Shown here one piece after another: positions 1 to 24,297 of a stretch of DNA of 51,506 nt. The stretch is from an uncultured delta proteobacterium. GTDB lineage: Bacteria > Desulfobacterota > Binatia > UBA9968. The notes beneath the pieces are model-generated. The model searched no databases. It was not told the DNA's origin and saw only the letters and a list, made by a program, of their open reading frames with translations. The translations under genes were made by a program, and so were the position numbers. The stretch is taken from assembly GCA_963755715.1 (NCBI GenBank), contig CAVWLW010000062.1, positions 1 through 51,506 of the forward strand, in the 5' to 3' direction. Position 1 is the stretch's first letter. The number at the start of each line of letters is the position of its first letter.

Positions 1-66
1 TTACGCAACGTGGGCCAGTCTGGATACCAGGCTCCCGCTGCAATTTGGCACTGAGGAGAAAACAAA

Positions 67-1260
67 ATGAAAAATCGTAACCGCCTCATTTACGACTGCT
101 TAGTGGTGTTCGCAATAATCATGACTGCCGGATGCTCGACGGGAACGAGTAATTCGCGCGCTCCGCTGGTCATCGCTGAACAAGGCTTCTTCTTCGTGGG
201 CGGTCGCTACGTTCCCGTCGCCAAGGATGACTACATCATGGCCGACCAGATGTACGTGCACTATCAGATCCCGCACGAAAAAAAGCATCCCTATCCGATC
301 ATCATGATTCACGGCGGCGGGCAGACGGCGAACAACTTTGAGAGCACGCCCGATGGCCGAGAAGGTTGGGCGACCAATTTTCTCCGCGCCGGATTCGCTG
401 TTTATCTCGTCGACCAACCCGGCCGAGCGCGCTCGCCCTATCAACCTGAAGTCTACGGCCCGCTTGCCAACGGTTCCCGCGCCAAGGCTGGGGTCGAGCA
501 ACGTTTCACCGCGCCGCAGCAGGAAAATCTTTATCCCCAAGCGCGACTGCACACTCAATGGCCCGGCAGCGGCACCAAAGGCGATCCGGTCTTCGATCAA
601 TTTTTTGCCTCACAAGTTTCGGGAATCAGCGACGGCGCAGTCAGCGAAAAATTGAACCAAGCCGCAGTGGCCGCGCTGCTCGACAAAATCGGCCCAGCGA
701 TCGTCCTCACCCATTCCATGTCGGGAACCTCCGGCTGGCTGATCGCCGACTCGCGCCCCAATCTCGTCAAAGGCATCGTCGGCATTGAACCGAGCAGTCC
801 GCCGTTTCGCAACTTGGAGGAGATCGGGCCGCCCGACTGGTTTCGCTATTCGCGAAACCTCGACAAGCCCTGGGGCATCACACGTCTCCCGATCGCCTAC
901 AGCCCGCCGGTGAAAAGCCCCGAAGAATTAAATCCGGTGCTCGAAGAAAAAGCCGATCGTCCCGATCTCACCCGCTGCTACCGTCAAAGCGAGCCGGCAC
1001 GCAAACTCGCTAAACTCGTCGGTGTGCCGATCTTAATCGTCAGCGGCGAAGCATCGTTTCACGCTCCTTGGGACCACTGCACGTCGAAGTACCTTACCCA
1101 AGCCGGCGTCGCCAACGAGCACGTACGCCTCGAAGACCACGGCATACACGGCACCGGTCATATGATGATGCTGGAAAAGAATAGTTTGGAAATTGCACAA
1201 CTCATCGCGCGCTGGCTTGAGCGACATGTGGACAATCGAGTGCCGATTCCAACGAAGTGA
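67..1260 (+). CDS. Alpha/beta-hydrolase fold lipoprotein (esterase-like)
   Basis: RBS GAGGAG upstream; lipobox-like MTAGC; HGGG oxyanion motif, VYLVDQPGR, nucleophile elbow THSMSG, C-terminal GHMMM catalytic His. Confidence 0.85.
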   Translation: MKNRNRLIYDCLVVFAIIMTAGCSTGTSNSRAPLVIAEQGFFFVGGRYVPVAKDDYIMADQMYVHYQIPHEKKHPYPIIMIHGGGQTANNFESTPDGREGWATNFLRAGFAVYLVDQPGRARSPYQPEVYGPLANGSRAKAGVEQRFTAPQQENLYPQARLHTQWPGSGTKGDPVFDQFFASQVSGISDGAVSEKLNQAAVAALLDKIGPAIVLTHSMSGTSGWLIADSRPNLVKGIVGIEPSSPPFRNLEEIGPPDWFRYSRNLDKPWGITRLPIAYSPPVKSPEELNPVLEEKADRPDLTRCYRQSEPARKLAKLVGVPILIVSGEASFHAPWDHCTSKYLTQAGVANEHVRLEDHGIHGTGHMMMLEKNSLEIAQLIARWLERHVDNRVPIPTK

Positions 1261-11266: not shown

Positions 11267-12211
11267 TTACTTTTGTCCCAGCACTTCCTTTAAAAAACGC
11301 CAATCCATGATTTTGTCTTCGCTGATTTCTTCGGAAATTTTCAGTTGCTCCCTGGCCAGGCGGATTTCCGAGTCCATGGTGTTTTTCGCGACCCAGCCGT
11401 CGTAGTTGAGCGAGCGCAGCGAAAAGTCGTGAACTTTGGCGGCGCCTTCGGCGCTGACATGAAGATAGTCGCGCATGATCGAGAGCGTCTCGGGCTTATT
11501 GTCTTTGATAAAGCGCACGCCTTTCAGCGTCGCCCGGATGACGCGCACGATTTGACTCGGATTTTTTCGTATCTTGTCCAGCGATACGCCGAAACCGCCG
11601 AGGCGCGTGTGCACGACGTCGCCGAAATAGACAACGGAGACGAGCCCGAGTTTTTCCGCTTTCTCGACGTAAGCCACGTCGAGCGGTGTGGCGTCGACGG
11701 TGCCGGCGATCAATGCCGCAAGCCGTTCGCCGGAGCCGCCGATCGCGAGCGCCGTCACGTCGCGGTCCGGGTTCATGCCGGCCTGCGCCAAAGCTTCGCG
11801 TAAAACGATATGCGGCGCCGAACCGATGGAGCTGACGCCGATCTTTTTGCCCTTAAAGTCGGTCAGCCGCTTGAACCCCGGCTTGGCGATCAAAATATGC
11901 AGCGGGCGGTCGAACCAGCCCATCACGCCTTTGACCGGCAGACCCTGGATGGACGCGCGGGCGATATTCCCGCTCACCGTGGAGTAGTCGAGCTCGCCGG
12001 CGATCAGCGCGGCGGCCTGCAGATTGGTGCGCACGACGACTTTGCGCACCTCGAGGCCTTCGTCTCGGTAAAAGCCTTTGCGCTGAGCGATCTCGGTCGG
12101 CAGCTCATAGAGACCGGGCGTGGAAATGCCGATATACACGACTTCGGCGCGGGAGCCGGCCGGCGCCGCCAGCGCGAGAACAAAGATTGCCAAAGCGAAA
12201 AATCTTGTCAT
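11267..12211 (-). CDS. ABC substrate-binding protein, SsuA/THI5 (NMT1) type
   Basis: Signal peptide; AQRKGFYRDEGL, KGKKIGVSSIGS. Confidence 0.85.
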   Translation of the reverse strand: MTRFFALAIFVLALAAPAGSRAEVVYIGISTPGLYELPTEIAQRKGFYRDEGLEVRKVVVRTNLQAAALIAGELDYSTVSGNIARASIQGLPVKGVMGWFDRPLHILIAKPGFKRLTDFKGKKIGVSSIGSAPHIVLREALAQAGMNPDRDVTALAIGGSGERLAALIAGTVDATPLDVAYVEKAEKLGLVSVVYFGDVVHTRLGGFGVSLDKIRKNPSQIVRVIRATLKGVRFIKDNKPETLSIMRDYLHVSAEGAAKVHDFSLRSLNYDGWVAKNTMDSEIRLAREQLKISEEISEDKIMDWRFLKEVLGQK

Positions 12212-12466
12212 TGACTGCTACCCGCTCGGCGGTGCGGTTAAACTAATACAACAAGCTGCGTGGCCGCAACCGGAATGCGGACAAAATGGCGGGTGCGTGC
12301 GCGATATCCCTGGAAAATTGCCAGATGAATGATCGCCGATGCGAAATCGAATCCAAGTTTAAATTTGTGCTGACTCACGAGACTTTCGTCCGAGGCAAGA
12401 TGCCGGACAGGAAAAACTTCCGAACGCTTTATCAGGATTTTTTCGCGATGATCGGTGGCGACCGCT

Positions 12467-13522
12467 TCAGCGCTTTTTTCCCGGCACCTCGTCACCCCAG
12501 AGCTCTCGGAGGAAGCCGCTCTTGGCGAGATTTTCCGCGAAGCTGTTATCGTAAATTTCGCCAGGCTTGCGGCGTACGTTGGCGCCCGACTGACGCAGAT
12601 TGTCGATCGCTTCGGTGACTCGCCAAGCCGGTACCGTGACGCGGCGGTTGACCAACTGCTTGGCGTAAGCGTCGTAGGCGGATTGCGCAGATTCGGGGTC
12701 TTTGAGCGCCAGCACTTTGCTGACGGATGCCTTGGCTTTGTCCGGGTTTTTCTCGACAAAAAGAATGGCTTCTGCCATGGCGGCCGTAAATTTCTGGACA
12801 ATCGCGGGGTGTTCTCTGAGCAGTTTATCATTAGCAAACACGCTGCTGTAAATGGCGGGCAGGTTCAGATCGTCGAGATGGTAGATAACGTTCAGTCCGT
12901 CGCGCTTGGCGCGCGCATCGAGCGGCGGTGTCACCATCGTCGCCTGTCCCAGGTCTTGCTGCAACGCCGTGTAGATTTCGGTTTGGCCGGCGCCGCCGAT
13001 ATGGCGGATTTTTAGATCGTCGGCGCTGAAGTTGAGTTTCTTCATCAAGGTGCGAATGAGCGTGTCCGGCGTGCCGCCAGGGCGGGTCGCGATGAAGATT
13101 TTACCCTTGAGGTCGTCGATGCGCTTGATGTCTTTGCGCGCGATGATCACCCACGGTAAGCCGATCAACGGCGAGGCGATCATCTTGGCCTCGGCGCCGG
13201 CGGCCAAGCTGGGAATGATCGCGTCGGCCGTGCAATAGAGAAATTGTAGCTCGTTGGCCGTGAGCGCCGCCGCCGAAATTCCGGCGCCGCGCACGAGCAG
13301 CAACTCCGGCTTGAGACCGTATTTGTCAAAAAGGTGATTATCGAGGGCGGTGTTGAGATGGATAAATCCGCCGCTGATGGCGCAGGTGGCGATGCGAATC
13401 GGCACGATCGGCTCGCCGGCTTTGGCCAGATATGGATTGGCCTGAAGCTTCATCGGCGATGATGCCGCGAGGAGAAGCCAGCCAAACAAGCTCGCGCGGG
13501 AAATTATCGGGTGCAACTTCAC
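12467..13522 (-). CDS. ABC substrate-binding protein, SsuA/THI5 type
   Basis: Signal peptide; LFDKYGL, DDLKGK..ATRPGG. Confidence 0.85.
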   Translation of the reverse strand: MKLHPIISRASLFGWLLLAASSPMKLQANPYLAKAGEPIVPIRIATCAISGGFIHLNTALDNHLFDKYGLKPELLLVRGAGISAAALTANELQFLYCTADAIIPSLAAGAEAKMIASPLIGLPWVIIARKDIKRIDDLKGKIFIATRPGGTPDTLIRTLMKKLNFSADDLKIRHIGGAGQTEIYTALQQDLGQATMVTPPLDARAKRDGLNVIYHLDDLNLPAIYSSVFANDKLLREHPAIVQKFTAAMAEAILFVEKNPDKAKASVSKVLALKDPESAQSAYDAYAKQLVNRRVTVPAWRVTEAIDNLRQSGANVRRKPGEIYDNSFAENLAKSGFLRELWGDEVPGKKR

Positions 13523-13554
13523 TTTTCCGGGGGCCTTGCGCAGTGTGAATCGGT

Positions 13555-14190
13555 TTACATGGGCGGCATGATTCCGCCGATGCCGGCGGTGATGCGGGTC
13601 GCCGTGATCGTGCCGTCTTCGCCGCGCACGGCGGCAATGTAAACGCCGGTGCCGGGCTGGAGCAGCGAACGATCGCCGGCGACGTTCTTCACGATCGGCG
13701 TGCCGGGCGGAACGAAGATTTTTTGTTCACCGTCTTTGTATTTCAAAGTCAGAAGCTGGCCCTGCACCTTTTCGGCGGCGAATGCTTCGATCTTGTCAAC
13801 ATTGGCGTTGGTCATGGTCGAGCCGGGTTGGAGATCCCACGGCCGGTGTCCTTCGCCCGTGCCGCGCGAGCTCTCCGGAAAGATGTGCACTTCAAGCGCT
13901 TTGAGCGTGCCGTCCGGCTGTTTCACCGCCGTGGTGCCGACGTAGTTGCCGGCGCCGATGTCGGAGAGCTTGGCCGCTTCGACCGCGCCGACCCGCACGT
14001 CGTCGGCAAACTTCACCAGGACATCGCCCGCCGACGTGGTGACTTTGAGCGCGCCTTTTTCCACGGCGGCGATCTTGCCGCGAATCGTCAACGGCTTGCC
14101 TTGCGGCGCTTGCGCCCGTGCAGATTCGAATTGGCTCACGCTTAGCGCGAGCAAGATTGTCAACCCTGAGCCAAGCAGTACGCGTTTCAT
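13555..14190 (-). CDS. Conserved exported beta-rich protein (DUF5666-like)
   Basis: Signal peptide; ALEVHIFPES.RGTGEGHRPWDL.PGSTMTNA motif. Confidence 0.7.
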   Translation of the reverse strand: MKRVLLGSGLTILLALSVSQFESARAQAPQGKPLTIRGKIAAVEKGALKVTTSAGDVLVKFADDVRVGAVEAAKLSDIGAGNYVGTTAVKQPDGTLKALEVHIFPESSRGTGEGHRPWDLQPGSTMTNANVDKIEAFAAEKVQGQLLTLKYKDGEQKIFVPPGTPIVKNVAGDRSLLQPGTGVYIAAVRGEDGTITATRITAGIGGIMPPM

Positions 14191-14240
14191 GGAATCATGT
14201 CCTTTGGGTGGAATTTGCAAAACTCGGTTTACGGCGCTTA

Positions 14241-15224
14241 TCACTGTGTCAGCGTCGCCAGCGCTTTTTTGTAAAATCGCTCGTCAACGTACTTTTCCGG
14301 TTTGGGCACCGGTGCTTTCATCAGCCCGGCGACTTCGCGCAATTCAATAATCGTGCGGATGCCCTCCATGTCGATGCGGCTGCGCGGCGTGAGGCCCATG
14401 GTCGGGCTGAGCGTGAGGTTGTACAGCGATTCGGCGCGGGCTTTGTTGTTTTTCGTTTCGCCCAGCAACAGTTGGACGGCTTCGTCCTTGTTTTTCGGGT
14501 CTTGCAGCCAATCCGTGGCGCGGATCATCGCGCGGTTAAAGCGCACGACGAGATCTTCGTTGGCGTTGGCCCACTCGCGCCGCGTCGCGCCCAGACCGCG
14601 GGCGTAGTGTTTGACATAATCTTGCGCGTGCGCGAGCACTTTGAAATTGCGTTTCTGGATCTCGTCGTCGGCCAGGCTCATCATCGCGCCGGCGGCGTCG
14701 CCGCGGCTCATGGCATCGGCCCGCGCCGTGGTATTGCCGAAGGATTTAAACGTATAGTCGCGGTTCCACTCGAGGCCGTGCTTTTTCAGGATGTAAACAC
14801 CGACGATGGCATAGCCCGTTGTCGGCGCGTCGACGGCGAAGACTTTGCCTTTGAGATCCGGGTAGCCCGCGATTCCCGGCGCAACGATGAGCTTCTGGTC
14901 GACGCCCTGGCTGCCGCCGAGAAAAATCACGAAATCGTTTTTCTGCGGATCTTCTCCCTGGCCTTCGGCCCAGGCGATGACGTTGTCGGCGTTGTTAAGG
15001 ATGAGATCATATTGACCGCGGATCAGATTGCGCAACAGCGTGGGCGAATCGGTCACTGTGTTGATTTCCACTCGGATGTTTTCTTGTTTGAGAAAACCTT
15101 TGCCTTCGGCGGCGATGATCGCCGCGTCGCGATTGAACAAGCCGATTTTTATCGTATCTTCAGCCATGGCTTCGAGCGGCAGCAACGCCAATATCGCTGC
15201 CATTACCCCCTTGATGAGCTTCAT
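14241..15224 (-). CDS. ABC substrate-binding protein, SsuA/THI5 type
   Basis: Signal peptide; AEGKGFL, DLKGKVFAVDAPTTGYA. Confidence 0.85.
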   Translation of the reverse strand: MKLIKGVMAAILALLPLEAMAEDTIKIGLFNRDAAIIAAEGKGFLKQENIRVEINTVTDSPTLLRNLIRGQYDLILNNADNVIAWAEGQGEDPQKNDFVIFLGGSQGVDQKLIVAPGIAGYPDLKGKVFAVDAPTTGYAIVGVYILKKHGLEWNRDYTFKSFGNTTARADAMSRGDAAGAMMSLADDEIQKRNFKVLAHAQDYVKHYARGLGATRREWANANEDLVVRFNRAMIRATDWLQDPKNKDEAVQLLLGETKNNKARAESLYNLTLSPTMGLTPRSRIDMEGIRTIIELREVAGLMKAPVPKPEKYVDERFYKKALATLTQ

Positions 15225-15363
15225 TCCACCCACCTCCGCGGAGCTGTGCGCCGCTTGTGCCTGTTACTTGTCAAATTTAGCCACCGACCGCAAGGCGAAG
15301 GCGGAAAATTTTTCCGTTGGGTCCGGTGAAGAAAAAAGAATCTGGATCGGCGCGCGTTGCGCT

Positions 15364-15702
15364 TTACAAAGTCGATCGGTGGGATTCGATCGGATCGCTA
15401 AGCTGGATCGTCGGGCCGCTCTCGTCGTCATGCGGCTCTGTTATAGGATCCAGCGCCGTCGTCACTGTGTTGCGCAAGGTCTGCAGCGACTTGGTCAACT
15501 CGCCGCGGATCGCTTCGGTGGTGCGGAAGGCTTCCTGTAAAATTTCTTCATCGCGTCGCTCTTTGAGGTCGGCCAGGATGCGCGCTCGCGTCTCGATGCG
15601 CTTTATCCCGGTGCTCTGGAGATAGGGTTTGAGGTGGGCGATTAAAATTCCGCCGGTGATGCCGGCGGAGAATATCAGCAGGTCGGAAATCCAGTCGCGC
15701 AT
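15364..15702 (-). CDS. Small single-TM protein with a helical/coiled-coil region and acidic tail
   Basis: RBS GGAGG; TM LLIFSAGITGGILIA; charged amphipathic helix; third gene of the amidase-actin unit. Confidence 0.7.
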   Translation of the reverse strand: MRDWISDLLIFSAGITGGILIAHLKPYLQSTGIKRIETRARILADLKERRDEEILQEAFRTTEAIRGELTKSLQTLRNTVTTALDPITEPHDDESGPTIQLSDPIESHRSTL

Positions 15703-15776
15703 TTGCACCTCCATTCGATGGCCGCACGGTGCCTGCAAGCTGAAGAATAATTTCTGCCGCGAATCATGTGCTTAGA

Positions 15777-16808
15777 CTAGAGCGACAGTTTCTCCCAGTC
15801 CGCAGTCGAAGCGTCGCGGGCGATCGCCAGGCTGCCGTCCGATCCGGCAAAAACCGGATCTTTGACTACCGTTGCGCGCCCGCCGCCCAGGTCGCTCAAA
15901 GCCTTAGTCACCGCCTCGGACAGCCCCGAAATCAGCGACGTGCCGCCGGCGAGGATGATGTTGTCGCGAACCTTGTCCTGAAATTCCGGCTCGACTTTTG
16001 TCAGCAACGTCGTCATCGTCTCGCACACCGGCGGCAGGATGCTTTCGCACGCCGCGCGCATTTCCTGGGTGATATCGATTTCCGTCGCCTTGCCCTTGAT
16101 CGGCACGGTGACCATGACGTGGTTTTTGGGCTCGCCGACGAAACTCCACTTTTCCTTCCACTCGCGCAACATGTGGATGGAAAACTGCGCGTCGGGATGG
16201 CGTTCGCGAATCAGCTTGATCAATTGTTCGTCGATCGAATCGCCGGCGTTGGGCAGAGTTTTCTGGTCCTCTTCGGTCGGATAGCGGCCTTGCATGACGC
16301 AGAAATCAGCCGTGCCGGCGCCGATGTCGATGACCAAGGCGTGCAAGAGCGCTTCCAAACCGTAGGCCACGGCGAAGGGTTCGGAGACGAGCATCACACT
16401 GTCGGCGACCCCTTCTATCGTATTGCGCAGATTTTGCCGGCTGACCCGGAAAGCTTCCGCCGGCACGCCGACTACGGCGCGCACCTTGGATTTGTTTTTG
16501 CCTTTTTGCTTGATGCCCGCGAGCGAGATCAGATGGCGCAGGATCTCTTGCACGGCCTCCTGATCTTTTTCGGAGCCATCTTTCATAATGCCGCGCTCGA
16601 GCGGCCGGCGCAGATCGAGCATGGGCCGGTTATCGAGAGCCTCGCGGCCGACTAGGACCGATTTTTTTACCAACTTGCGCGCGACCATGTCGACCGGCCA
16701 GCCGACATAGCTATCGACGACGTGCCGCTCGCCGGTGGACGCGGAGATCGAGCTTCGAGAAGTGCCGAGATCGATGCCCACGCAAAGTGGTTCGTTGGTT
16801 TCTTCCAT
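15777..16808 (-). CDS. Actin-like ATPase, MamK/Mad28-like (MreB superfamily)
   Basis: Phosphate-1 GIDLGTS, VSEPFAVAYGL, phosphate-2 DIGAGTAD, adenosine AGGTS; MamK-like segments PTEEDQKTL..AG, KEKWSFVG, VKDPVFAG..G.L and C-terminal W..L. Confidence 0.85.
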   Translation of the reverse strand: MEETNEPLCVGIDLGTSRSSISASTGERHVVDSYVGWPVDMVARKLVKKSVLVGREALDNRPMLDLRRPLERGIMKDGSEKDQEAVQEILRHLISLAGIKQKGKNKSKVRAVVGVPAEAFRVSRQNLRNTIEGVADSVMLVSEPFAVAYGLEALLHALVIDIGAGTADFCVMQGRYPTEEDQKTLPNAGDSIDEQLIKLIRERHPDAQFSIHMLREWKEKWSFVGEPKNHVMVTVPIKGKATEIDITQEMRAACESILPPVCETMTTLLTKVEPEFQDKVRDNIILAGGTSLISGLSEAVTKALSDLGGGRATVVKDPVFAGSDGSLAIARDASTADWEKLSL

Positions 16809-16811
16809 GAA

Positions 16812-17813
16812 TCAGCTGCCTTTCCTGTCGGCGACGGTAAAGCGATGTGCGTATTGGCGAATCCCTTGTGCGAGCGCCAGCGCGATATTTTCCCGATAAT
16901 CCGGTTTTGTCAACAATTGGACCTCGTCTTCATTGGACAAACAGGCGATCTCAGCCAAGATGGCCGGCATCTGCGTGCCGATCAAAACGACGAAGGGCGC
17001 GGTCCGGACGCCGCGATTTTCCAAATCGGGATTGGCGGTCTTGAGCGACTGAAAGAGCCGGCTTTGAATGGTCCTGGCAAAAACGCGCGATTCGTCGCGT
17101 CGGGCATCGACATAAATCTTTTCGAGGATTTTTTTATAATCCGCGAGGGAATAGTCCGACTCTTTATTTTCCCGGCTGGCGAGCTTGAGCGTGACGGGAT
17201 CGTCGGTGGGACCGACGTAATAAGTTTCCAGCGCTCGGATCGTGTGCGGCTCCATCGAATTCACATGAATCGAAAGGAAGAGGTCGGCCTTGTGCTCGTT
17301 GGCAAAAGCGACGCGCTGGTCGAGAGATAGGCGCCGGTCGGTTTCGCGCGTCAATAAGACTTCGAAGGGGCTGTTGCTCAACAGCCGGCGTAGGCGCAAT
17401 GCGACATCTAAGGTGATCTCTTTTTCGGTAAGACCCGATTCCGCCGTGGCCCCTGGCTCGCCACCGTGGCCGGGATCGATGACGATAGTCTTGATGGAGA
17501 GCGGAATCGCGGTCCGGTCGATCGGTCGAGGGTGTGACAACGGCACGGTCGCTTCCGGTGTCAGGTCGACGTTGATGGCTGCGGCACTGACAGGCGTTGT
17601 GCTCTGGACGGACGCACGGTTGGGCAGGAATTGTGCTGGCACGGCCAACAAATAGACGAGTGCAATGGCGCTCAACGCGCCGAAAATCCACACCCCAAAC
17701 CGGCGACGTGCCTGCGGTTTGGTGCGAACAATCCGGACGCCTTGGACAGTGGCGATATTATCTTGGACCGCGCCACGAAGCAGTCGAGCCTTCGTTTCGC
17801 CGATGCTAGCCAT
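16812..17813 (-). CDS. Membrane-anchored N-acetylmuramoyl-L-alanine amidase (Amidase_3)
   Basis: IVIDPGHGG, EK, LTR, FLSIHVNS, MPAILAEIA (Zn ligands H, E, H and catalytic E); TM at about aa 39-60 and a Pro/Thr linker. Confidence 0.9.
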   Translation of the reverse strand: MASIGETKARLLRGAVQDNIATVQGVRIVRTKPQARRRFGVWIFGALSAIALVYLLAVPAQFLPNRASVQSTTPVSAAAINVDLTPEATVPLSHPRPIDRTAIPLSIKTIVIDPGHGGEPGATAESGLTEKEITLDVALRLRRLLSNSPFEVLLTRETDRRLSLDQRVAFANEHKADLFLSIHVNSMEPHTIRALETYYVGPTDDPVTLKLASRENKESDYSLADYKKILEKIYVDARRDESRVFARTIQSRLFQSLKTANPDLENRGVRTAPFVVLIGTQMPAILAEIACLSNEDEVQLLTKPDYRENIALALAQGIRQYAHRFTVADRKGS

Positions 17814-18092
17814 GCACAGCCTTACAAATAAAACGACAATTTAGTAAAATATTTGCTGATGTTACATTATGTCGGCCCTAGTGCGCAATCCGAAAGGCAG
17901 AGGTCGGGCCACGGATGAACAAAGATTTCCGCTGGAACTTTTTACCCGCGATAAAGCTGTTGCGTAAAATCCTCGACACGATTAATGAGATAGGCGCCGG
18001 CTGATCGAAGGATTTGAACGATTCTTTTACGTGGATTGGCCGAGCAGAAAACTGCCCGGCGATCAGTTCATTTTTCATTTTAGGAGATTCTG

Positions 18093-19065
18093 ATGCCGCT
18101 TTTGCTCAGTGAGACTGACTTGGCGCCGTTGTATCGCGACCCCGCCGCGATGGATAGTTTGCTCGACCGTATCGAAGAATCTATGCGCGCGTTTAACCGC
18201 GGCGCCGTCGCCGGCCAGGTCCGTTTGGAAACGAGCCTGAGCGATCGAACAAAAAAATATCGTATCACTACTTCAGCAGTCCCAAGCGCGGGTCAGGGGA
18301 TGCGCATCAATGCGCTTTTTCGCGGCGCCAAAGATTCCTATTTTATTTTGCTCTTCGATGAAGAACGCGGCGATTTGCTGGCGCTGGTAGCCGGCGCGGC
18401 GCTCAACGTCTGGCGCACGGGCGCTCCCGCCGGCGTCGCCAGCCGATATCTCGCTCCGCCGGGCGCCGATGTGCTGGGACTCATCGGCAGCGGGCGCCAA
18501 GCGCGCGGTCAACTTTTGGCGATTCGCCGGGCTTTGCCGTCGTTGAACAACGTCAAAGTTTTTAGTTCGACCGAAGCGCACCGCGAGAGCTTCGCCAAGG
18601 AAATGAGCGTTTGGCTTGGCATCGATGTCGAAGCGGTAAATAATCCGCGCGCGGCGGTCGAGCATGCGCCGATCGTTAGCATTGCAACCAGCACTCGTTC
18701 GCCAGTCATCGAGCCCGAATGGGTTCGGCCCGGCGCCTTGGTCGTATCGATTACGAGCGGGCAACTGCCGCGCGCGACGATTACAAATTCGCGCGTGATC
18801 GTGTCCTGGAAAGAGGAAGTGCTCGGCGGCGAAGCGCCGCGGCAGCCCTACGCCGGTATGATCGCCGACGGCTCCTGGTCGGCCGACCAAATCGCCGGCG
18901 AGCTTGGCGATGTGCTGCTCGGAAAAATTCCAGCGCGGGTCAGCGAAAACGACACGATCGTTTTCGAATCGGTCGGCATGTCTTTGTGGGACACCACGGC
19001 CACGGCATGGGCTTATCACTGGGCTTTGGAACGAAGGCGTCGGACGCCAATTTTCGCTGGCTTAG
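18093..19065 (+). CDS. Ornithine cyclodeaminase / mu-crystallin family protein (probable +1 frameshift near 19035)
   Basis: WRTGA, GLIGSGRQA Rossmann motif, ELGDVL.GK..R, FESVG.S.WD; the shifted frame gives the typical end GVGRQFSLA* and removes a 170-nt convergent overlap. Confidence 0.85.
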
Positions 19066-20460
19066 GGCGTCGATTGCGCAGGAAAGTTATTTGTCACAAA
19101 TTTCGGCAAAAAATCTTCCAGACGAATTTTTTTCATCACTTCATCCGGCACTCTCAGCTCCGGGGCGAAACCCGTGAGCGGTTTCGTCGCATCCAAGCCC
19201 ATTTTTGCGTTGACGCCGCCGGGACCGGCTGACGGATCGAGCTCGCTGCCCTGGGCGTTCGGGATCACCACCAAGCCGTGATCGGCTTGAAAGCGATTCG
19301 ACACCGCCCAGAGGACCTGTTCTTCATCGAAGACGTCGATGTCGTCGTCGACCACGATCACATGTTTCAGCAGCATGTCCGACGCGAAGGCGGCGCAGAT
19401 CGCGTTCTTCGCCTGACCGGGCGTGCGCTTGGCAATTGAAATATAGGCGTGAAAGCGGCAGTTGCCCGACACCGGCATGCAGACATTTTTCACCGTCGGC
19501 ACGGTTTGGCGCACGGCTTTGATCAGCGCGGCTTCGCGCGGCACCGCGCCCATCAGCTTGTGCTCGGTGTAGCCGGCGTGCACGTCCTGAAAAATATAAT
19601 TCCTGCGATGCGTGATCGCGGTCACTTCGATCACCTGACGATCATCTTTGGAGACTGCGTGGCCGGTGAATTCGCCGAACGGACCTTCTTCGCGCCGGAC
19701 ATCGGGAAGAATTTTTCCTTCGATCACCATCTCGGCGTCGGCGGGAACCAAAATCGGCACCGTCTTCGCTTTCACGACGCGCAGCGCTTCTTCCATCATG
19801 CCGCCGATGACCGCGTATTCGTCTTCCGTCGACGGCGTAAACGCCTGCGCGCCCAAGGAGAACAGCGGATGAACGCCGATAACGATCGCGATGGGAAGCG
19901 GCTCTTTGCGCCGTTCCAATTTGTTGTGCAGCGTCCAGAGATGACGGCCGACCGCCATGAAAATGCGCAGCTCGCGCTTGCGCGCCATCATGAGCCGGTT
20001 ATAGCTGGTGTTTCTCACGCCGCTGTCGGGATCGGCGGCCACGACGATGCCGGCGGTGATATACGGCGCCGCGTTTACGTCATAGTGAGTCAGCAGCGGC
20101 ACTTTTGTCAGATCCACATCAGCATCGACCTTGACGACTTCGTGCACCGGCGCATCTTTGACTTCCACCGGCGCAATCGGCTTGCCTTGCCGCTCGGTGA
20201 ATTTCGTTGCCAGCTCTTCGGGTTTGCACTGCAAGGCCAGCGCCATCAGCTTGCGGCTCGCTTGCACATTGACCACGACGGGAGCGTCGCTGCCTTCGAC
20301 GTTCTCACAAAAAAGCAGCGGAAAACGTTTGCTGCTTTTCCAACTGAGTGAGCAGCGCCGTGATTTCGTAACGCGGCGAGATCGGTTTCGTCACACGGGC
20401 AATTTCTTCCGGCGACGCGGCTTCCAGCTCGGCGATGAAACTGCGCAGGTCTTTGGCCAC
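19062..20460 (-). CDS. UbiD-family decarboxylase (+1 frameshift near 20335)
   Basis: GTG at 20460 gives MAKDLRSFIAELE..ITALL, joining RFPLLFCENV; EGPFGEFTGH, VIVVDDDID, LDPS, KMGLDATKP. Confidence 0.85.
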
Positions 20461-20505
20461 GTTAGAATTCAGCTTTTCTGAAGAATTGACTCAAGGTCAA
20501 TAGGT

Positions 20506-21573
20506 TTATAACGCGTACAGGGCACGTGGGTTATCGTCCAGGATCTTCTTCTTGACCGGATCGGTGACAAGATCGCTCGCTCGGAAGATGTCGATGGCGT
20601 CCACTTCGCTCGACGCGTCGGTGTGGCCGTAGTCGGTGCCGATGACGACGTTATCTTCGCCGGCGTAGCGCAGAACGTATTCGAAGTCGTCGTTGGTCTC
20701 GGTGGTGACGTAGATATTGAATTCTTTGAACGGCAGCTTGGGAAAGCCTTTCGTGCCGCTGCGCCGGATCGCTTCTTTAACGACCCAGGGCACCCATTGG
20801 GCGGAAGCTTCGACAAACGCCCAACGCAGTTTCGGAAAAGTTGTCGGCACGTCGCTCATCATTAAAGACAGACAAGTGATGACCGTCGGTATACGGAACT
20901 GAGCGAAGCCGCCCATGCGATCGTAGCGCGGCTTGAATTGGTCCATCAGTTGCGGACTGCCGTTGGCGATGTGCACGGCGACGACGAGATCCAGCCGTGT
21001 CGCTTCTTCGTAGATCGGATAGAAATACGGATCCACGAGATGCTTGTCGTCTTCGAACGGGCGCAGGCTTACGGCGACGGCGCCGTTCTCCTTGGCGTAG
21101 CGCATTTGCTGGATTGCCTCGTTCAAAGTCATCGCCGGCACGACGCACGACCAGCGCAGCCGATTGTTGCCTTGTTTCCAGACTTCCGCCATCCAGCGGT
21201 TCCACGATTTGCACAGCGCGATTTCCGCTTCGGCTTTATCTGCGACCCGGGCGATCCACATGGTGTTGAAAAGAATTTGCACGTCGATGGCGAGCTTGTC
21301 CATGTGCTTCAAGCGCAGCTCGACGTCGCGCAGCTCGCGCGCCTCGGGCGCGGTTTGGAGCTCCCGTCCGGTTTGTTTGGAAAGGGCGATCAATTCCTGT
21401 TCGGTCAACGTCGGCGGGCGGAACCCGACCGATTTTCCCTCGACGAACCAGTACTGCATGTTGGAGTTGTCGACGGAGCTAAAAAGTTGCGGCCGGAACT
21501 TTTTTTCTGACGCATCGAGAAAATCCCACGTGTGTTCGGTTTCAACGACGTGGGCATCGGCATCGACAATCAT
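20506..21573 (-). CDS. Amidohydrolase_2 family protein
   Basis: DADAHVVE, AVH, GTDYGH; RBS AAGGAG before the ATG at 21573. Confidence 0.9.
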   Translation of the reverse strand: MIVDADAHVVETEHTWDFLDASEKKFRPQLFSSVDNSNMQYWFVEGKSVGFRPPTLTEQELIALSKQTGRELQTAPEARELRDVELRLKHMDKLAIDVQILFNTMWIARVADKAEAEIALCKSWNRWMAEVWKQGNNRLRWSCVVPAMTLNEAIQQMRYAKENGAVAVSLRPFEDDKHLVDPYFYPIYEEATRLDLVVAVHIANGSPQLMDQFKPRYDRMGGFAQFRIPTVITCLSLMMSDVPTTFPKLRWAFVEASAQWVPWVVKEAIRRSGTKGFPKLPFKEFNIYVTTETNDDFEYVLRYAGEDNVVIGTDYGHTDASSEVDAIDIFRASDLVTDPVKKKILDDNPRALYAL

Positions 21574-21744
21574 GGTTTGCTCCTTGAGCGAATACGTTTG
21601 CGACATATTACCAGTGAAACTGACAGCCAACTTCGGACCCATTCTACCTAAGCGAACCCACGGGTCAACCGACGCGTCCCATGCGACGAAGCCTTGCGGC
21701 GGTTTGGCGCTTTTGCGAATCGTGGCTGATGGCGCGAATTCAAA

Positions 21745-22716
21745 CTAAGGCAGAAAACTCAGGTCCATCAACTGCTGCGGCGTGAAAGTTTTTGCTTTGG
21801 GATCTTCGAGCGCTGCGGCATCGATGACCAGTTGCACGCCTTTGACGCTCACCCGGGCGTCGTCGGGCAACGTTTTCAAATTGATCTCATAGGCCTGCTC
21901 GGCGATCTGCCGATCCAAATTCTTTTGCAGTTGTAACGATTTCTTGACGGCTTCTTCTTTGTGCGTCTTGTGATAGCGGATGGCATCGACGTAGGCCCGC
22001 AAAAACCGGCGCAACATTTCCGGCTGATTCTTTAACGTGTCTTCGCGAGCGATGACAGCGATGTGAGCGTACTCGATGTCCTTATCGATGAAATCGAGCA
22101 GCAAATTGTAACCGAGTTTGCGCGCGACCATCGCTTGTTCGAGATTAAAAAAAGTCGCATCGATGACGCGGGCGCGCATGGCGTTGAGCCGGGCGTCCGG
22201 ACTTCCCGACTGGATGATCGTGAGATCGGTCTTGGGATTCAAGCCGAACTCCGCCGCTGCCAACCGGGCGATAAAATCGGTATTGCTGCCAAATCGGGTT
22301 ATGCCGAGCTTCTTGCCTTTCAATTGCGCGCCATTGCGAATTTCGGGCTGAGAAAGCAAGGAGAAGGGAATCCGGTTGTTCAGGCCGGCGACGATTTTCA
22401 TCTCGGCGCCATGTAAGACGGCGTAGAGCATCGGCGTCGCACCGCCGAGCAGGAGATCCAAGCTCTTGCCGAGCAATGCCTGTATGGATGTCGAGCCGCC
22501 GGTAATTAGCACCGGTTCCAAGTTGAATCCGTGCTTGGCAAAAATCCCGGCATCGCGGCCGACATAAAAGGGCACCTCGCTGGTAAGACCATTGTGGCCG
22601 AGCCGTATAGTGGTCAGTTCGGCTGCCCCAAGCGGCCGAAATACGGCGAGAAAAATGGAAAGCGTAAGAACAAAAGTTGCGAGATGTCCGCGTAGCCGTG
22701 CGGGAGATATTTTCAT
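21745..22716 (-). CDS. ABC substrate-binding protein, SsuA/THI5 type
   Basis: Signal peptide; GIFAKHGF, LKGKKLGITRFGS. Confidence 0.85.
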   Translation of the reverse strand: MKISPARLRGHLATFVLTLSIFLAVFRPLGAAELTTIRLGHNGLTSEVPFYVGRDAGIFAKHGFNLEPVLITGGSTSIQALLGKSLDLLLGGATPMLYAVLHGAEMKIVAGLNNRIPFSLLSQPEIRNGAQLKGKKLGITRFGSNTDFIARLAAAEFGLNPKTDLTIIQSGSPDARLNAMRARVIDATFFNLEQAMVARKLGYNLLLDFIDKDIEYAHIAVIAREDTLKNQPEMLRRFLRAYVDAIRYHKTHKEEAVKKSLQLQKNLDRQIAEQAYEINLKTLPDDARVSVKGVQLVIDAAALEDPKAKTFTPQQLMDLSFLP

Positions 22717-22830
22717 GACGACTCTCAGGCCCGGAGGTTATCTGATTTCCTCGCCCGCAGGCAACAGTGAATTTTTCTGCGCCTGGGGTTTGTGGTACGT
22801 TGGCAGTATCGATCGAGACAAGGAGTAAAC

Positions 22831-24297
22831 ATGTTCGATAGCTCGAAGATTCAATCTCATATCGCTTTCACCGATCTGCGCCAGTGGATAAGCGAAGCTG
22901 AAAAGCTCGGCGAATTGAAGACCGTTCTCGGCGCGTCGTGGCAGGAAGAAATCGGTTTGGCGACGGATGTCGTAGTTCCTCCGGACGACGGGCCGGCGGT
23001 GCTTTTCGACGAAGTGCCCGGTTGCCCGAAGGGGTTTCGCCTGCTGATCAATTGTTTTGCCGGCAAGCGGCGCGCCATGACGCTCGGGTTTCCTCAAGGT
23101 TTGACCAAGCAGGAGTTGAGCGACGCCTATTTCTCGCACTACCAGAAAGATCCCAAACATATCCCACCGGTGATCGTCGATGACGGGCCGATTTTCGAGA
23201 ATACTCTCAAAGGCGACGATATCGACATTCTCAAATTTCCCACGCCGGTCTGGCACGTCAACGACGGCGGCCGCTACATCGGCACGGGCTGTTTTTCAGT
23301 TACGATGGACCCAGACGAAAAGTGGATAAACGCAGGCTGCTACCGGGCCATGATTCAAGATCAGAAAAGCGTCAGCCTGCTGATGGTTCCAGGCAAACAT
23401 GGCTACATGCATCGCGAGAAATATTTCAAACGCGGCGAGAAAATGCCGCTGGCGCTGGTAATTGGCGGCGATCCGCTATTTTTTTTCATGGCGGGAACCG
23501 AGCAGCCGTATGGGCTCTGCGAATACGACATCGTTGGCGGCATGCGCCGAAAGCCGGTCGAGTGCGTGCGCGGAAAGATCACAGGTCTGCCGTTCCCGGC
23601 CAATTCAGAAATTGTTTTCGAAGGATTCCTCAATAACGACAACCGCAAGTTCGAAGGTCCGTTCGGCGAGTGGACCGGCTATTACGCGTCCGACGAGAGC
23701 GCCCAGCCGGTATTGGAAATCGAAGCGATCTATCATCGCAACGACCCGATCATTCTCGGTGTGCCGCCCATCGGCGGCGGCTCGGACGAGATGGCGCGCT
23801 ATCGCGCGATCATGCGCTCGGCGATGCTCAAGCAGCAACTCCAAAGCGCCGGCGTGCCTGACGTGACGCAAGTGTGGTCGCACGAGATCGGCGCGTCGCG
23901 CATGCTGATCGCGCTCGCGATCAAGCAGCGCTACGCAGGCCACGCCAAACAGGTCGGCGTGCTGGCGGCGAGCTGCGGCGCGAGCGTTTACGGCTGCAAA
24001 ATGGTCATCGTCGTCGACGATGATATCGACGTTTCCAATCTGGATCAGCTCATGTGGGCGATGCTGTCGCGCTACGATCCGGCGACTTCGGTGGACATCT
24101 TGCGCCGCATGCGCAGCACGCCGGCCGACCCGCGGCTCACACCCGAGCAGCGTAAGGTCCGCGACTTTACCAACTCGCGCATGGTCATCGACGCCACGCG
24201 GCCCTACGAATGGAGAGACAAGTTTCCGAAGGTCAACGCGCCGAGCCAGGAGGTTACACGCAAAGCGCGCGAAAAGTTTGGTTATCTGTTGAAGTAG
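22831..24297 (+). CDS. UbiD-family decarboxylase
   Basis: DLRQWI, DGGRYIGT, NAGCYR, EGPFGEWTGYY, VIVVDDDID, IDATRP; RBS AAGGAG. Confidence 0.92.
   Translation: MFDSSKIQSHIAFTDLRQWISEAEKLGELKTVLGASWQEEIGLATDVVVPPDDGPAVLFDEVPGCPKGFRLLINCFAGKRRAMTLGFPQGLTKQELSDAYFSHYQKDPKHIPPVIVDDGPIFENTLKGDDIDILKFPTPVWHVNDGGRYIGTGCFSVTMDPDEKWINAGCYRAMIQDQKSVSLLMVPGKHGYMHREKYFKRGEKMPLALVIGGDPLFFFMAGTEQPYGLCEYDIVGGMRRKPVECVRGKITGLPFPANSEIVFEGFLNNDNRKFEGPFGEWTGYYASDESAQPVLEIEAIYHRNDPIILGVPPIGGGSDEMARYRAIMRSAMLKQQLQSAGVPDVTQVWSHEIGASRMLIALAIKQRYAGHAKQVGVLAASCGASVYGCKMVIVVDDDIDVSNLDQLMWAMLSRYDPATSVDILRRMRSTPADPRLTPEQRKVRDFTNSRMVIDATRPYEWRDKFPKVNAPSQEVTRKAREKFGYLLK

Follow-up and report, generated by a model that had tools for sequence, protein, structure and literature searches.

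A MamK-like actin encoded beside a cell-wall amidase with a predicted actin-binding tail in a soil bacterium without detectable magnetosome genes

MamK is the actin of magnetotactic bacteria (NCBIfam NF040964; structures 5ljv, 5ljw, and 5jyg), but related actins are known from bacteria that are not magnetotactic. BeeR of Verrucomicrobiota (NCBIfam NF053558; structure 8r2n) is reported to be 25-30% identical to MamK and has a disordered N-terminal extension of 30-50 residues (PMC11929497). "Saltatorellin" of Saltatorellota, from the PVC group, is a MamK-like actin that is found beside a canonical MreB and that formed filaments when it was expressed in E. coli and Magnetospirillum (bioRxiv 10.1101/817700). 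Here, we describe a MamK-type actin from an uncultured soil bacterium. It is encoded in a 51,506-nucleotide stretch of DNA (contig CAVWLW010000062.1 of assembly GCA_963755715.1), which we will term the window, and its gene lies just after the gene for an amidase of the Amidase_3 family (PF01520), which also includes the cell-division amidases AmiA, AmiB, and AmiC (structures 8c2o, 3ne8, and 4bin). The features of the locus are listed in the table.

Features of the actin/amidase locus (positions in the window)
Feature	Coordinates	Strand	Product or residues	Remarks
MamK-superfamily actin gene	15777..16808	-	343 aa	ATG start; stop codon at 15777-15779
Bitopic N-acetylmuramoyl-L-alanine amidase gene	16812..17813	-	333 aa	3 nt upstream of the actin gene
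Codons for the conserved cytoplasmic N-terminal helix of the amidase	17745..17804	-	res 4-23, ...TKARLLRGAVQDNIATVQG...	Proposed actin-binding peptide
Codons for the single transmembrane helix of the amidase	17643..17705	-	res 37-57	Preceded by a basic stretch
Codons for the periplasmic Amidase_3 catalytic domain	16833..17489	-	res 109-327	Follows a disordered linker (res 58-108)
Small ORF	15364..15738	-	124 aa as listed	38 nt downstream of the actin gene; one hydrophobic helix near the N-terminus; possible third gene, uncertain
Intergenic region between the amidase gene and the divergent ornithine-cyclodeaminase-family gene	17814..18092			Presumed operon promoter region

An earlier note, made from the sequence alone, proposed that this actin carries MamK-type rather than MreB-type signatures, and we found that this is correct. 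All ten of the motifs that it listed are present (GIDLGTSRS at residues 11-19, SYVGWPVD at 33-40, LDLRRPLERG at 64-73, VGVPA at 113-117, VSEPFAVAYGL at 141-151, DIGAGTAD at 161-168, PTEEDQKTL at 177-185, KEKWSFVG at 218-225, VKDPVFAG at 315-322, and WEKL at 338-341), although WEKL is not quite terminal as the note had it, because the protein ends WEKLSL. The MamK motifs that the note gave for Magnetospirillum agree with the residue-by-residue alignment to the solved MamK chains 5ljw and 5jyg, and the MreB motifs that it gave are found in the genome's own MreB, which carries DLGTAN, EEPMAAAIGSG, and DIGGGTTE.

Profile searches lead to the same conclusion. Among the NCBIfam models, the actin scores 376.3 bits on MamK (E = 1.2e-112), 218.8 bits on BeeR, 75.8 and 63.1 bits on the MreB models (NF010539, cut-off 293, and TIGR00904, cut-off 365.75), and 27.6 bits on FtsA. 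Among PDB sequences, the best match is MamK (257.7 bits; E = 1.4e-75 to 5ljw_A), followed by BeeR (148.3 bits) and MreB (58.1 bits). The AlphaFold model of the protein (pLDDT of 79, with low confidence in subdomain IB, residues 34-78) is closest to the MamK filament subunit 5ljv_A (TM of 0.85/0.90, E = 2.7e-33, 38% identity), then to BeeR, and then to MreB. The catalytic Glu of the SEP motif (E143) and the residues of the phosphate and adenosine loops (D13, G15, D161, G163, G165, G288, and G289) are invariant in 34 of 34 aligned members of the clade. The note's suggestion that the filament is probably dynamic rests only on inference from such conserved residues.

However, this is a MamK-superfamily actin and not a magnetosome MamK. 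Its score is below the curated MamK cut-off of 400 bits, while the MamK of Magnetospirillum sp. SS-4, scored in the same way, gives 544 bits. The window protein is 37-40% identical to Magnetospirillum MamK. No magnetosome gene passes a curated cut-off in the 7.4-Mb genome, which is 93.6% complete: MamI and MamL have no matches, MamP gives only PDZ-region hits of at most 31.5 bits, and MamB (58.7 bits) and MamE (188 bits) are far under their cut-offs. (As a positive control, the MamI search does find a match in a Magnetospirillum genome, at 106 bits.) The neighbors of the actin gene in the window encode the amidase, substrate-binding proteins, UbiD-family enzymes, and similar proteins. Also, a tblastn search with six Magnetospirillum Mam proteins hit 0 of 80 loci from related genomes. 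It is not a BeeR either: it is far below the BeeR cut-off of 530 bits, its matches to the MamK and BeeR models start at residue 8, so there is no N-terminal extension, and it falls outside the BeeR-like clade.

In a phylogenetic tree of 62 sequences (IQ-TREE with LG+C20), the actin and its relatives form a well-supported clade (SH-aLRT of 100, and 99 with its sister sequence) that is separate from the clade that holds the MamKs of Magnetospirillum and Magnetococcales (98-99). FastTree suggested that BeeR was the sister of the window clade, with support of 91, but this was not recovered with the mixture model. The note also suggested that the protein could be informative about where magnetosome actins came from. 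This is only partly borne out, because the backbone of the tree and its root are unresolved.

The new observation on this actin is its genomic partner. An Amidase_3 gene lies directly upstream, on the same strand, in 79 of 80 related loci, and the other locus has no upstream DNA. The gap between the two genes is mostly −4 to +7 nt. These loci are from uncultured soil lineages, and the titles of their records name Candidatus Binatia, "delta proteobacterium," Syntrophobacter, Rokubacteria/Methylomirabilota, and Thermoanaerobaculia, among others. The pairing also holds in 73 of 73 loci from a second scan, which partly covers the same contigs, and in two relatives that are 49 and 53% identical and whose amidases keep the tail motif that is described below. 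In contrast, it is absent from all 120 loci that were retrieved by a pattern search for MamK motifs, which include the magnetosome and Planctomycetota MamK-like genes. We found no description of this pairing in the literature, although the supplementary tree and table of the Saltatorellota preprint and the appendix of the BeeR paper might already show this clade. The main text of the BeeR paper does not contain "amidase" or "operon," and we found no amidase partner in the parts of the saltatorellin report that we read. The Planctomycetota clade in our tree has no amidase neighbor.

The pair is not universal, even among close relatives. Samples of its own phylum and class gave 7 of 301 and 3 of 151, respectively, but the pair was found in 53 of 90 genomes of its own GTDB family (50 of 87 without three unpublished genomes). 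In all 53 of these genomes the actin is under the MamK cut-off. Within its own genus, the pair was missing from some genomes that are 98-99% complete, and it was missing from whole genera (for example, 0 of 12 genomes in the genus coded g201). It is therefore dispensable in close relatives. Every record that was listed in the two scans (80 loci each) is a metagenome-assembled genome, so no cultured host is known.

The amidase has a conserved N-terminal helix that is predicted to be cytoplasmic, one membrane helix, a disordered linker, and a catalytic domain that resembles those of AmiA and AmiB. It matches Pfam Amidase_3 at 165.1 bits (cut-off of 27) over residues 110-319. The model of the protein has a pLDDT of 81.5, with values above 90 over most of residues 120-330 and below 50 in residues 63-84. 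Its closest folds are E. coli AmiA (8c2o; Foldseek E = 2e-19, TMt of 0.86) and Bartonella AmiB (3ne8), and the match extends over the full AmiA-length domain of about 230 residues rather than the shorter CwlV- or LytH-type domain. H116, E130, H183, and E288, which are probably the zinc ligands and the catalytic Glu, are invariant in 34 of 34 sequences. However, the amidase resembles forms of AmiA and AmiB that are autoinhibited. Unlike septal amidases of the AmiC/AmiB type, it has no AMIN domain and no exported N-terminus. The genome encodes a separate amidase with AMIN and Amidase_3 domains, as well as a canonical MreB and FtsA (457.7 bits), so the actin/amidase pair is an extra module.

The tail motif is conserved in all 34 aligned amidases, which come from several phyla, while the rest of the N-terminal region varies; K8 and N19 are at least 90% conserved. 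The position of the membrane helix is also conserved. A search of all six frames of the genome found only one match to the tail motif, in this amidase, so with this pattern we saw no second client for the filament. To ask if the tail might bind the actin, we modeled the complex, and tail residues 2-25 form the predicted interface. The ipSAE was 0.85, 0.85, and 0.84 in three runs, while the best of three controls was 0.01. The runs agree in at least 87% of contacts, and the pLDDT of the partner is at least 66. (In the calibration of this method, 58 of 80 solved complexes and 2 of 110 mismatched pairs reached the threshold, but these counts hold only roughly because we used our own alignments.) Also, 6 of the 20 predicted interface positions on the actin (Q125, R128, R175, Y176, A333, and D337) carry residues that are conserved in the amidase-linked clade and that differ from those in the magnetosome, Desulfobulbaceae, and Planctomycetota clades. 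Nevertheless, the score is a model's confidence, and as peptide-in-groove complexes of actin-family proteins have been solved, part of it could come from likeness to those. If this groove is the one that is used for longitudinal contacts between subunits, then it may be free only on monomers or at one end of the filament.

The small downstream ORF has no Pfam match, and tblastn found it only in the closest relatives (17 of 80 loci, at 32-75% identity); the downstream genes differ in the other lineages. A consensus scan upstream of the amidase gene found no minus-strand sigma-70-like site (there were 2 plus-strand sites in the region, with 1.0 expected), and neither a promoter nor a terminator was located; nothing exceeded the shuffled expectation. 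Contigs from the RNA libraries of three soil or rhizosphere studies bridge the amidase/actin junction, but such contigs cannot prove transcription or a single transcript.

Based on these data, we propose that the actin is an ATP-dependent, filament-forming member of the MamK superfamily and that it is the second gene of a tightly packed two-gene operon. In this model, the actin polymerizes on the cytoplasmic face of the inner membrane, and the conserved amphipathic helix of the amidase docks into the groove between the actin's helix 139-155, loop 174-176, and C-terminal helix 329-341. The membrane helix and a flexible linker of about 50 residues would hold the catalytic domain at the peptidoglycan layer, so that the filament decides where, and perhaps when, stem peptides are cut from the glycan strands. 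The logic would be similar to that of ParM-ParR, MreB-RodZ, and FtsA-FtsN, in which an actin-like polymer seems to bind a short cytoplasmic segment of a partner, except that here the partner is itself a periplasmic peptidoglycan hydrolase that is encoded in the same operon. We consider this explanation to be more likely than not, but it is entirely computational, and polymerization, dynamics, binding, the membrane topology, and the role in wall remodeling are all inferred.

The main alternative, which we consider to be much less likely, is that the filament positions some other cargo or the membrane and that the amidase serves mainly as its membrane and peptidoglycan anchor, much as adaptor proteins tether other bacterial filaments. 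The gene pair, the tail motif, and the complex model fit an anchoring role as well as a guiding role, and the actin is much more conserved than the amidase (mean column identity of 77% versus 44%). However, the invariance of the amidase's predicted zinc and catalytic residues suggests that enzyme activity is under selection, the tail motif occurs only once in the genome, and there is no other conserved neighbor.

Other roles seem very unlikely. Close relatives are named "rod shape-determining protein MreB" in databases, and the broad Pfam model MreB_Mbl is passed at 87.1 bits (gathering score of 27), but an MreB/Mbl paralog that works in elongation is contradicted at the family level by the NCBIfam scores and by the presence of a canonical MreB, which sits in the tree on a very long branch outside all of the MamK-like sequences. 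A true magnetosome MamK in a cryptic or former magnetotactic bacterium would account for the best-scoring family and the best structural match, but not for the sub-threshold scores, the separate clade, or the lack of detectable magnetosome genes in this genome and in the related loci. Many divergent bacterial actins segregate DNA, and the patchy distribution of the pair within its family might suggest a ParM/Alp-like actin of a plasmid, phage, or other mobile element. But the contig has the typical composition of the genome (rank 17 of 76 by tetranucleotide distance, GC of 0.561 versus 0.560), the neighbors are chromosomal metabolic genes that are conserved in synteny with relatives, the partner is an amidase rather than a DNA-binding adaptor, and the actin is 63-99% identical across the related loci. 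Also, FtsA from another contig is 81-83% identical to FtsA in four of the five genomes we checked that carry the pair, and 53% identical in the fifth. The composition and the FtsA comparison also argue against a misbinned contig.

This clade is abundant in soil metagenomes: of 8000 candidates scored, 5839 protein clusters matched at E of 1e-10 or better. The best 120 were 87-99% identical to the window protein, and those that carry a source name are called MreB, so these proteins are being named MreB while they fall just under the MamK cut-off. The 77% mean column identity of the actin, across 34 sequences whose record titles span several phyla, is unusually high and is what one expects of a polymer under many constraints. 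Bacterial actins are few, and each characterized family has revealed a distinct mechanism; a dedicated pair of an actin and a peptidoglycan hydrolase, joined by a short and mutable peptide, would be an easily testable case of a cytoplasmic polymer controlling a periplasmic enzyme. More tentatively, it is possible that this is a third kind of actin-guided cell-wall machine, beside the MreB elongation complex and the FtsA-anchored divisome, in which a treadmilling MamK-type filament holds the amidase by a 20-residue helix and so patterns or moves wall cleavage from inside the cell. MamK-like actins without magnetosome genes now form several clades around the magnetosome one, and this clade, the Planctomycetota clade, and the Desulfobulbaceae pairs all lack magnetosome genes where we looked. 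On this tentative reading, magnetosome MamK would be one specialized offshoot of an older family of envelope-associated actins, rather than that family's founder.

The actin gene is a single ORF on the minus strand of the window (coordinates of this and other features are in the table below). The earlier note had proposed that this actin carries MamK-type rather than MreB-type signatures, and all ten of the motifs on which it relied are present in the protein, at residues 11-19, 33-40, 64-73, 113-117, 141-151, 161-168, 177-185, 218-225, 315-322, and 338-341. (The protein ends WEKLSL.) The MamK motifs that the note had used for comparison agree with the alignment to the solved MamK chains, and its MreB motifs are found in the genome's own MreB.

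Features discussed in the text, with their coordinates (res, residues of the encoded protein)
Feature	Coordinates	Strand	Length
MamK-superfamily actin gene	window 15777..16808	minus	343 aa
Amidase_3 gene	window 16812..17813	minus	333 aa
Predicted N-terminal helix of the amidase	res 4-23		
Predicted membrane helix of the amidase	res 37-57		
Predicted disordered linker of the amidase	res 58-108		
Predicted catalytic domain of the amidase	res 109-327		
RNA-library contig X3, bridging the amidase/actin junction	window 16417-16972		
RNA-library contig X7, bridging the amidase/actin junction	window 16764-16914		
RNA-library contig X13, bridging the amidase/actin junction	window 16661-16943		
Surrounding genes, apparent aromatic-acid catabolic neighborhood	window 11267-15233 and 19062-24297		
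Second amidase of the genome (AMIN plus Amidase_3)	G000:C20:28013-29722 (contig C20 of the genome; also L204:214-1923)		569 aa
Tandem MamK-like genes in locus L110	L110:1090-3902		

Comparison with family models clearly favors MamK. The protein scored 376.3 bits against the NCBIfam MamK model (curated cut-off 400), 218.8 bits against BeeR (cut-off 530), and only 75.8 and 63.1 bits against the NCBIfam MreB models (cut-offs 293 and 365.75, respectively). The broad Pfam model MreB_Mbl gave 87.1 bits. Among sequences in the PDB, the MamK chains gave 254-258 bits, BeeR gave 148 bits, and Thermotoga MreB gave 58 bits. An AlphaFold model that was built with 34 clade members (pLDDT 79, with subdomain IB poorly defined) is closest to the MamK filament subunit 5ljv (TM 0.85/0.90, 38% identity), then to BeeR 8r2n, and then to MreB. 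Also, the phosphate loops, the adenosine loop, and the Glu of the SEP motif are invariant in 34 of 34 aligned sequences. So, the note's statement that the protein is MamK-type and not MreB-type is right, although the protein falls just short of the curated MamK threshold. (As a control, MamK from Magnetospirillum sp. SS-4 scored 544 bits against the same model.)

The window protein is not a magnetosome protein. The window is contig C62 of a 7.4-Mb assembly in 76 contigs, which is 93.6% complete with 4.2% contamination. When we searched that genome with curated magnetosome families, MamI and MamL had 0 matches, MamP had only PDZ-region hits of at most 31.5 bits (cut-off 300), MamB had one generic CDF transporter at 58.7 bits (cut-off 350), and MamE had generic HtrA proteases at up to 188 bits (cut-off 800). 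The same MamI search does give a hit of 106 bits in the Magnetospirillum genome, so the method works. A tblastn search with six Magnetospirillum Mam proteins found only HtrA-like hits in the genome and nothing in 80 related loci, but it did find the expected genes next to MamK in the alphaproteobacterial loci. The neighbors in the window are an amidase, NMT1-type binding proteins, UbiD-family enzymes, an amidohydrolase, and transporters. In particular, the surroundings hold four NMT1/SsuA-type substrate-binding protein genes, two UbiD-family decarboxylase genes, an Amidohydro_2 gene, an aldo/keto reductase, and a 3-hydroxyanthranilate-dioxygenase-like cupin, which looks like an aromatic-acid catabolic neighborhood that is unrelated to the actin. 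The genome also encodes a canonical MreB, FtsA (457.7 bits), and a second amidase with AMIN plus Amidase_3 domains, which is the usual septal type.

Relatives of the protein are numerous. A search of protein clusters returned 5839 clusters at E 1e-10 or better among the 8000 candidates scored; the best 120 were 87-99% identical, and those that carry a source name are called MreB or rod shape-determining protein. In species-representative genomes, 181 stretches encode a relative. The best 80 of these are all from MAGs (63-99% identity), and their record titles name Candidatus Binatia, "delta proteobacterium", Syntrophobacter, Rokubacteria/Methylomirabilota, Thermoanaerobaculia/Holophagae/Acidobacteriota, and Entotheonellaceae. 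A degenerate DNA pattern for a MamK motif brought in bona fide MamK loci (Magnetospirillum, LM-1, and Magnetococcales), many Planctomycetota loci, and Desulfobulbaceae/Desulfurivibrionaceae loci. Identity to the window protein is 37-40% for Magnetospirillum MamK and 41-48% for the Planctomycetota proteins. One contig (locus L191), from a MAG titled Methanosarcinaceae archaeon, encodes a MamK-like protein that is 38% identical to the window protein, which could be due to misbinning or gene transfer. Finally, an exhaustive search of 1.84 billion representatives gave 186 proteins at E 1e-30 or better. These include proteins of 700-1232 aa (P0138, P0140, P0142, P0144, P0147, P0154, and P0164) whose last 330 residues or so are a MamK-like actin domain, 40-43% identical to the window protein. 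In the one that we scanned (P0138), Pfam finds nothing in the first 900 residues or so.

To place the protein among these relatives, we built a tree with IQ-TREE and a site-heterogeneous model on 62 rows. (The rows were chosen from 106, which came from 218 collected; we dropped close duplicates, fragments, and the longest branches, P0247, P0255, P0176, and P0236.) The window clade (11 rows) had SH-aLRT support of 100, and of 99 with one sister representative, P0126. The clade that holds the MamKs from magnetosome clusters had support of 98-99 and is clearly apart. A BeeR-like clade, which we identified by a family scan, had support of 100, and a group that holds the Planctomycetota rows had support of 86-89. 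The long proteins with a C-terminal actin domain form their own clade, and the protein from L191 branches deep, with P0152. However, the branches that join these groups have support of 80-86 or less, and the only outgroup is the genome's own MreB, which is on a very long branch. We therefore cannot say which clade is oldest or whether the window clade is the sister of magnetosome MamK.

Other MamK-like actins in this tree also lack magnetosome genes nearby where we looked. The Planctomycetota loci (among L083-L202; e.g., L092, L121, and L122) represent a large clade, and its representative P0131 passes the NCBIfam MamK cut-off (420.5 bits), yet almost no hits to Mam proteins lie nearby (only weak MamE/HtrA-like hits in L106 and L169) and no amidase lies nearby either. 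Similarly, MAGs of Desulfobulbaceae, Desulfurivibrionaceae, and Thermodesulfobacteriota carry two MamK-like genes in tandem, with a 164-aa gene of no known family between them (loci L110, L103, L105, L152, L126, L140, L117, and L164). In L110 the flanks are radical-SAM, Usp, and PilZ genes, not magnetosome genes. Even so, both copies group with bona fide magnetosome MamKs (support of 98-99).

The window clade is defined by a conserved partner. An Amidase_3 gene on the same strand ends three bases upstream of the actin's start codon, and tblastn found this amidase directly upstream on the same strand in 79 of 80 related loci. (The one miss, L051, starts inside the actin gene.) The two ORFs are mostly separated by -4 to +7 nt, but five loci show 25-160 nt, and some large negative values arise because we took the longest ORF. 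A second scan, with a Holophagae member as the query, gave the same arrangement in 73 of 73 loci that had at least 700 nt of upstream DNA, although many of these contigs are the same as in the first scan, and in one of them (L254) the two matches overlap by a base or two. Two relatives that are 49 and 53% identical, from the same GTDB phylum as the window, have the amidase too. In contrast, none of the 120 pattern-derived loci has it, and these include the magnetosome, Planctomycetota, and Desulfobulbaceae MamK-like genes.

The alignment of the amidases and a structural model (pLDDT 81.5) show five parts: an N-terminal helix, a basic and variable stretch, a membrane helix, a disordered linker, and the catalytic domain. 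The N-terminal helix carries a motif that is kept across all 34 aligned sequences and in the two distant relatives, although its surroundings are not conserved. The motif reads roughly K-R-R-L-L-R-x-A-V-x-E-N-L-x-x-I-x-G, with K8 and N19 at least 90% conserved, and a regular expression for it matched only once in all six frames of the genome, at this N-terminus. The catalytic domain is closest to E. coli AmiA (8c2o, TMt 0.86) and Bartonella AmiB (3ne8), over about 230 residues, and H116, E130, H183, and E288 are invariant.

We folded the actin together with residues 1-40 of the amidase, each with its own 34-row alignment. The ipSAE was 0.85, 0.85, and 0.84 in three runs, as compared to 0.00, 0.01, and 0.00 for the three controls. 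The runs share at least 87% of their contacts, and the pLDDT of the partner is at least 66. In the calibration of this method, 58 of 80 solved complexes and 2 of 110 mismatched pairs reached the mark, but these counts hold only roughly with user-supplied alignments, and likeness to solved complexes can inflate a score. In the model, tail residues 2-25 touch actin residues 124-128, 139-155, 174-176, and 329-341. This is probably the hydrophobic cleft between the two halves of the molecule, which is the site used by many actin-binding peptides and by ParR on ParM, but this mapping is an inference from the actin fold. Of the 20 interface positions, six (Q125, R128, R175, Y176, A333, and D337) carry residues that are conserved in the amidase-linked clade and differ from the other clades. 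The core of the groove (V141, F145, Y149, L154, and G174) is shared by most of the family.

The gene is frequent among close relatives but not universal. We found it in 53 of 90 genomes of the own GTDB family (12 of 31 if only high-quality genomes are considered), in 15 of 23 genera within that family, and in 24 of 30 other genomes of the own genus. (Three of the family genomes, G467, G502, and G484, all with a match, are unpublished; without them the count is 50 of 87.) None of the 90 family genomes is over the MamK cut-off. As some nearly complete genomes of the own genus lack the gene, the module is common but dispensable. The gene is rare in samples of the own class (3 of 151) and of the own phylum (7 of 301, at E 1e-80 or better), yet near-identical proteins occur in MAGs whose record titles name other phyla. 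This could reflect inconsistent naming of MAGs or lateral spread of the pair. The contig is not a binning error. Contigs assembled from four soil or rhizosphere RNA libraries, from four studies, cover parts of both genes at 90-100% identity, and three of them bridge the amidase/actin junction. Such contigs show presence in an RNA library but do not prove transcription or a single transcript.

MamK-like actins outside of magnetotactic bacteria are already known in principle. BeeR is a MamK-related family in non-magnetotactic Verrucomicrobiota (PMC11929497), and the main text of that paper has no occurrence of "amidase". A MamK-like "saltatorellin" from Saltatorellota forms filaments in heterologous hosts (bioRxiv 10.1101/817700), and the Planctomycetota proteins described here may be its relatives. 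A Thiomargarita preprint mentions mamK homologs next to a flotillin-like gene, and a study of MamK orthologs (mBio 2023) used only ParM as its non-magnetotactic actin. A full-text search found no paper that mentions MamK together with N-acetylmuramoyl-L-alanine amidase, and further searches with MamK turned up nothing on this pair, although supplements, which may hold relevant trees, were not covered.

The simplest reading of these facts is a two-part module, although every functional step is still to be shown experimentally. We propose that a MamK-type polymer forms on the cytoplasmic side, that a single-pass amidase is held to it by a short helix, and that the catalytic domain of the amidase reaches the wall on a flexible linker. 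A rival explanation is that the amidase mainly anchors the filament. We cannot exclude this, but it seems less likely because the catalytic residues are invariant. Also, if the groove is the longitudinal contact site as well, then the tail may bind only monomers or one end of the filament, as ParR does on ParM, which would change the mechanism from a rail to end-tracking.

Overall, our results confirm the observation in the earlier note and support its interpretation, but the protein should not be filed as a magnetosome MamK, because we tested for three defining features and did not find them. Rather, it is a member of the MamK superfamily, in a distinct clade that is defined by a conserved amidase partner. 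If our reading is correct, the filament would set the place, and perhaps the timing, of amidase action.
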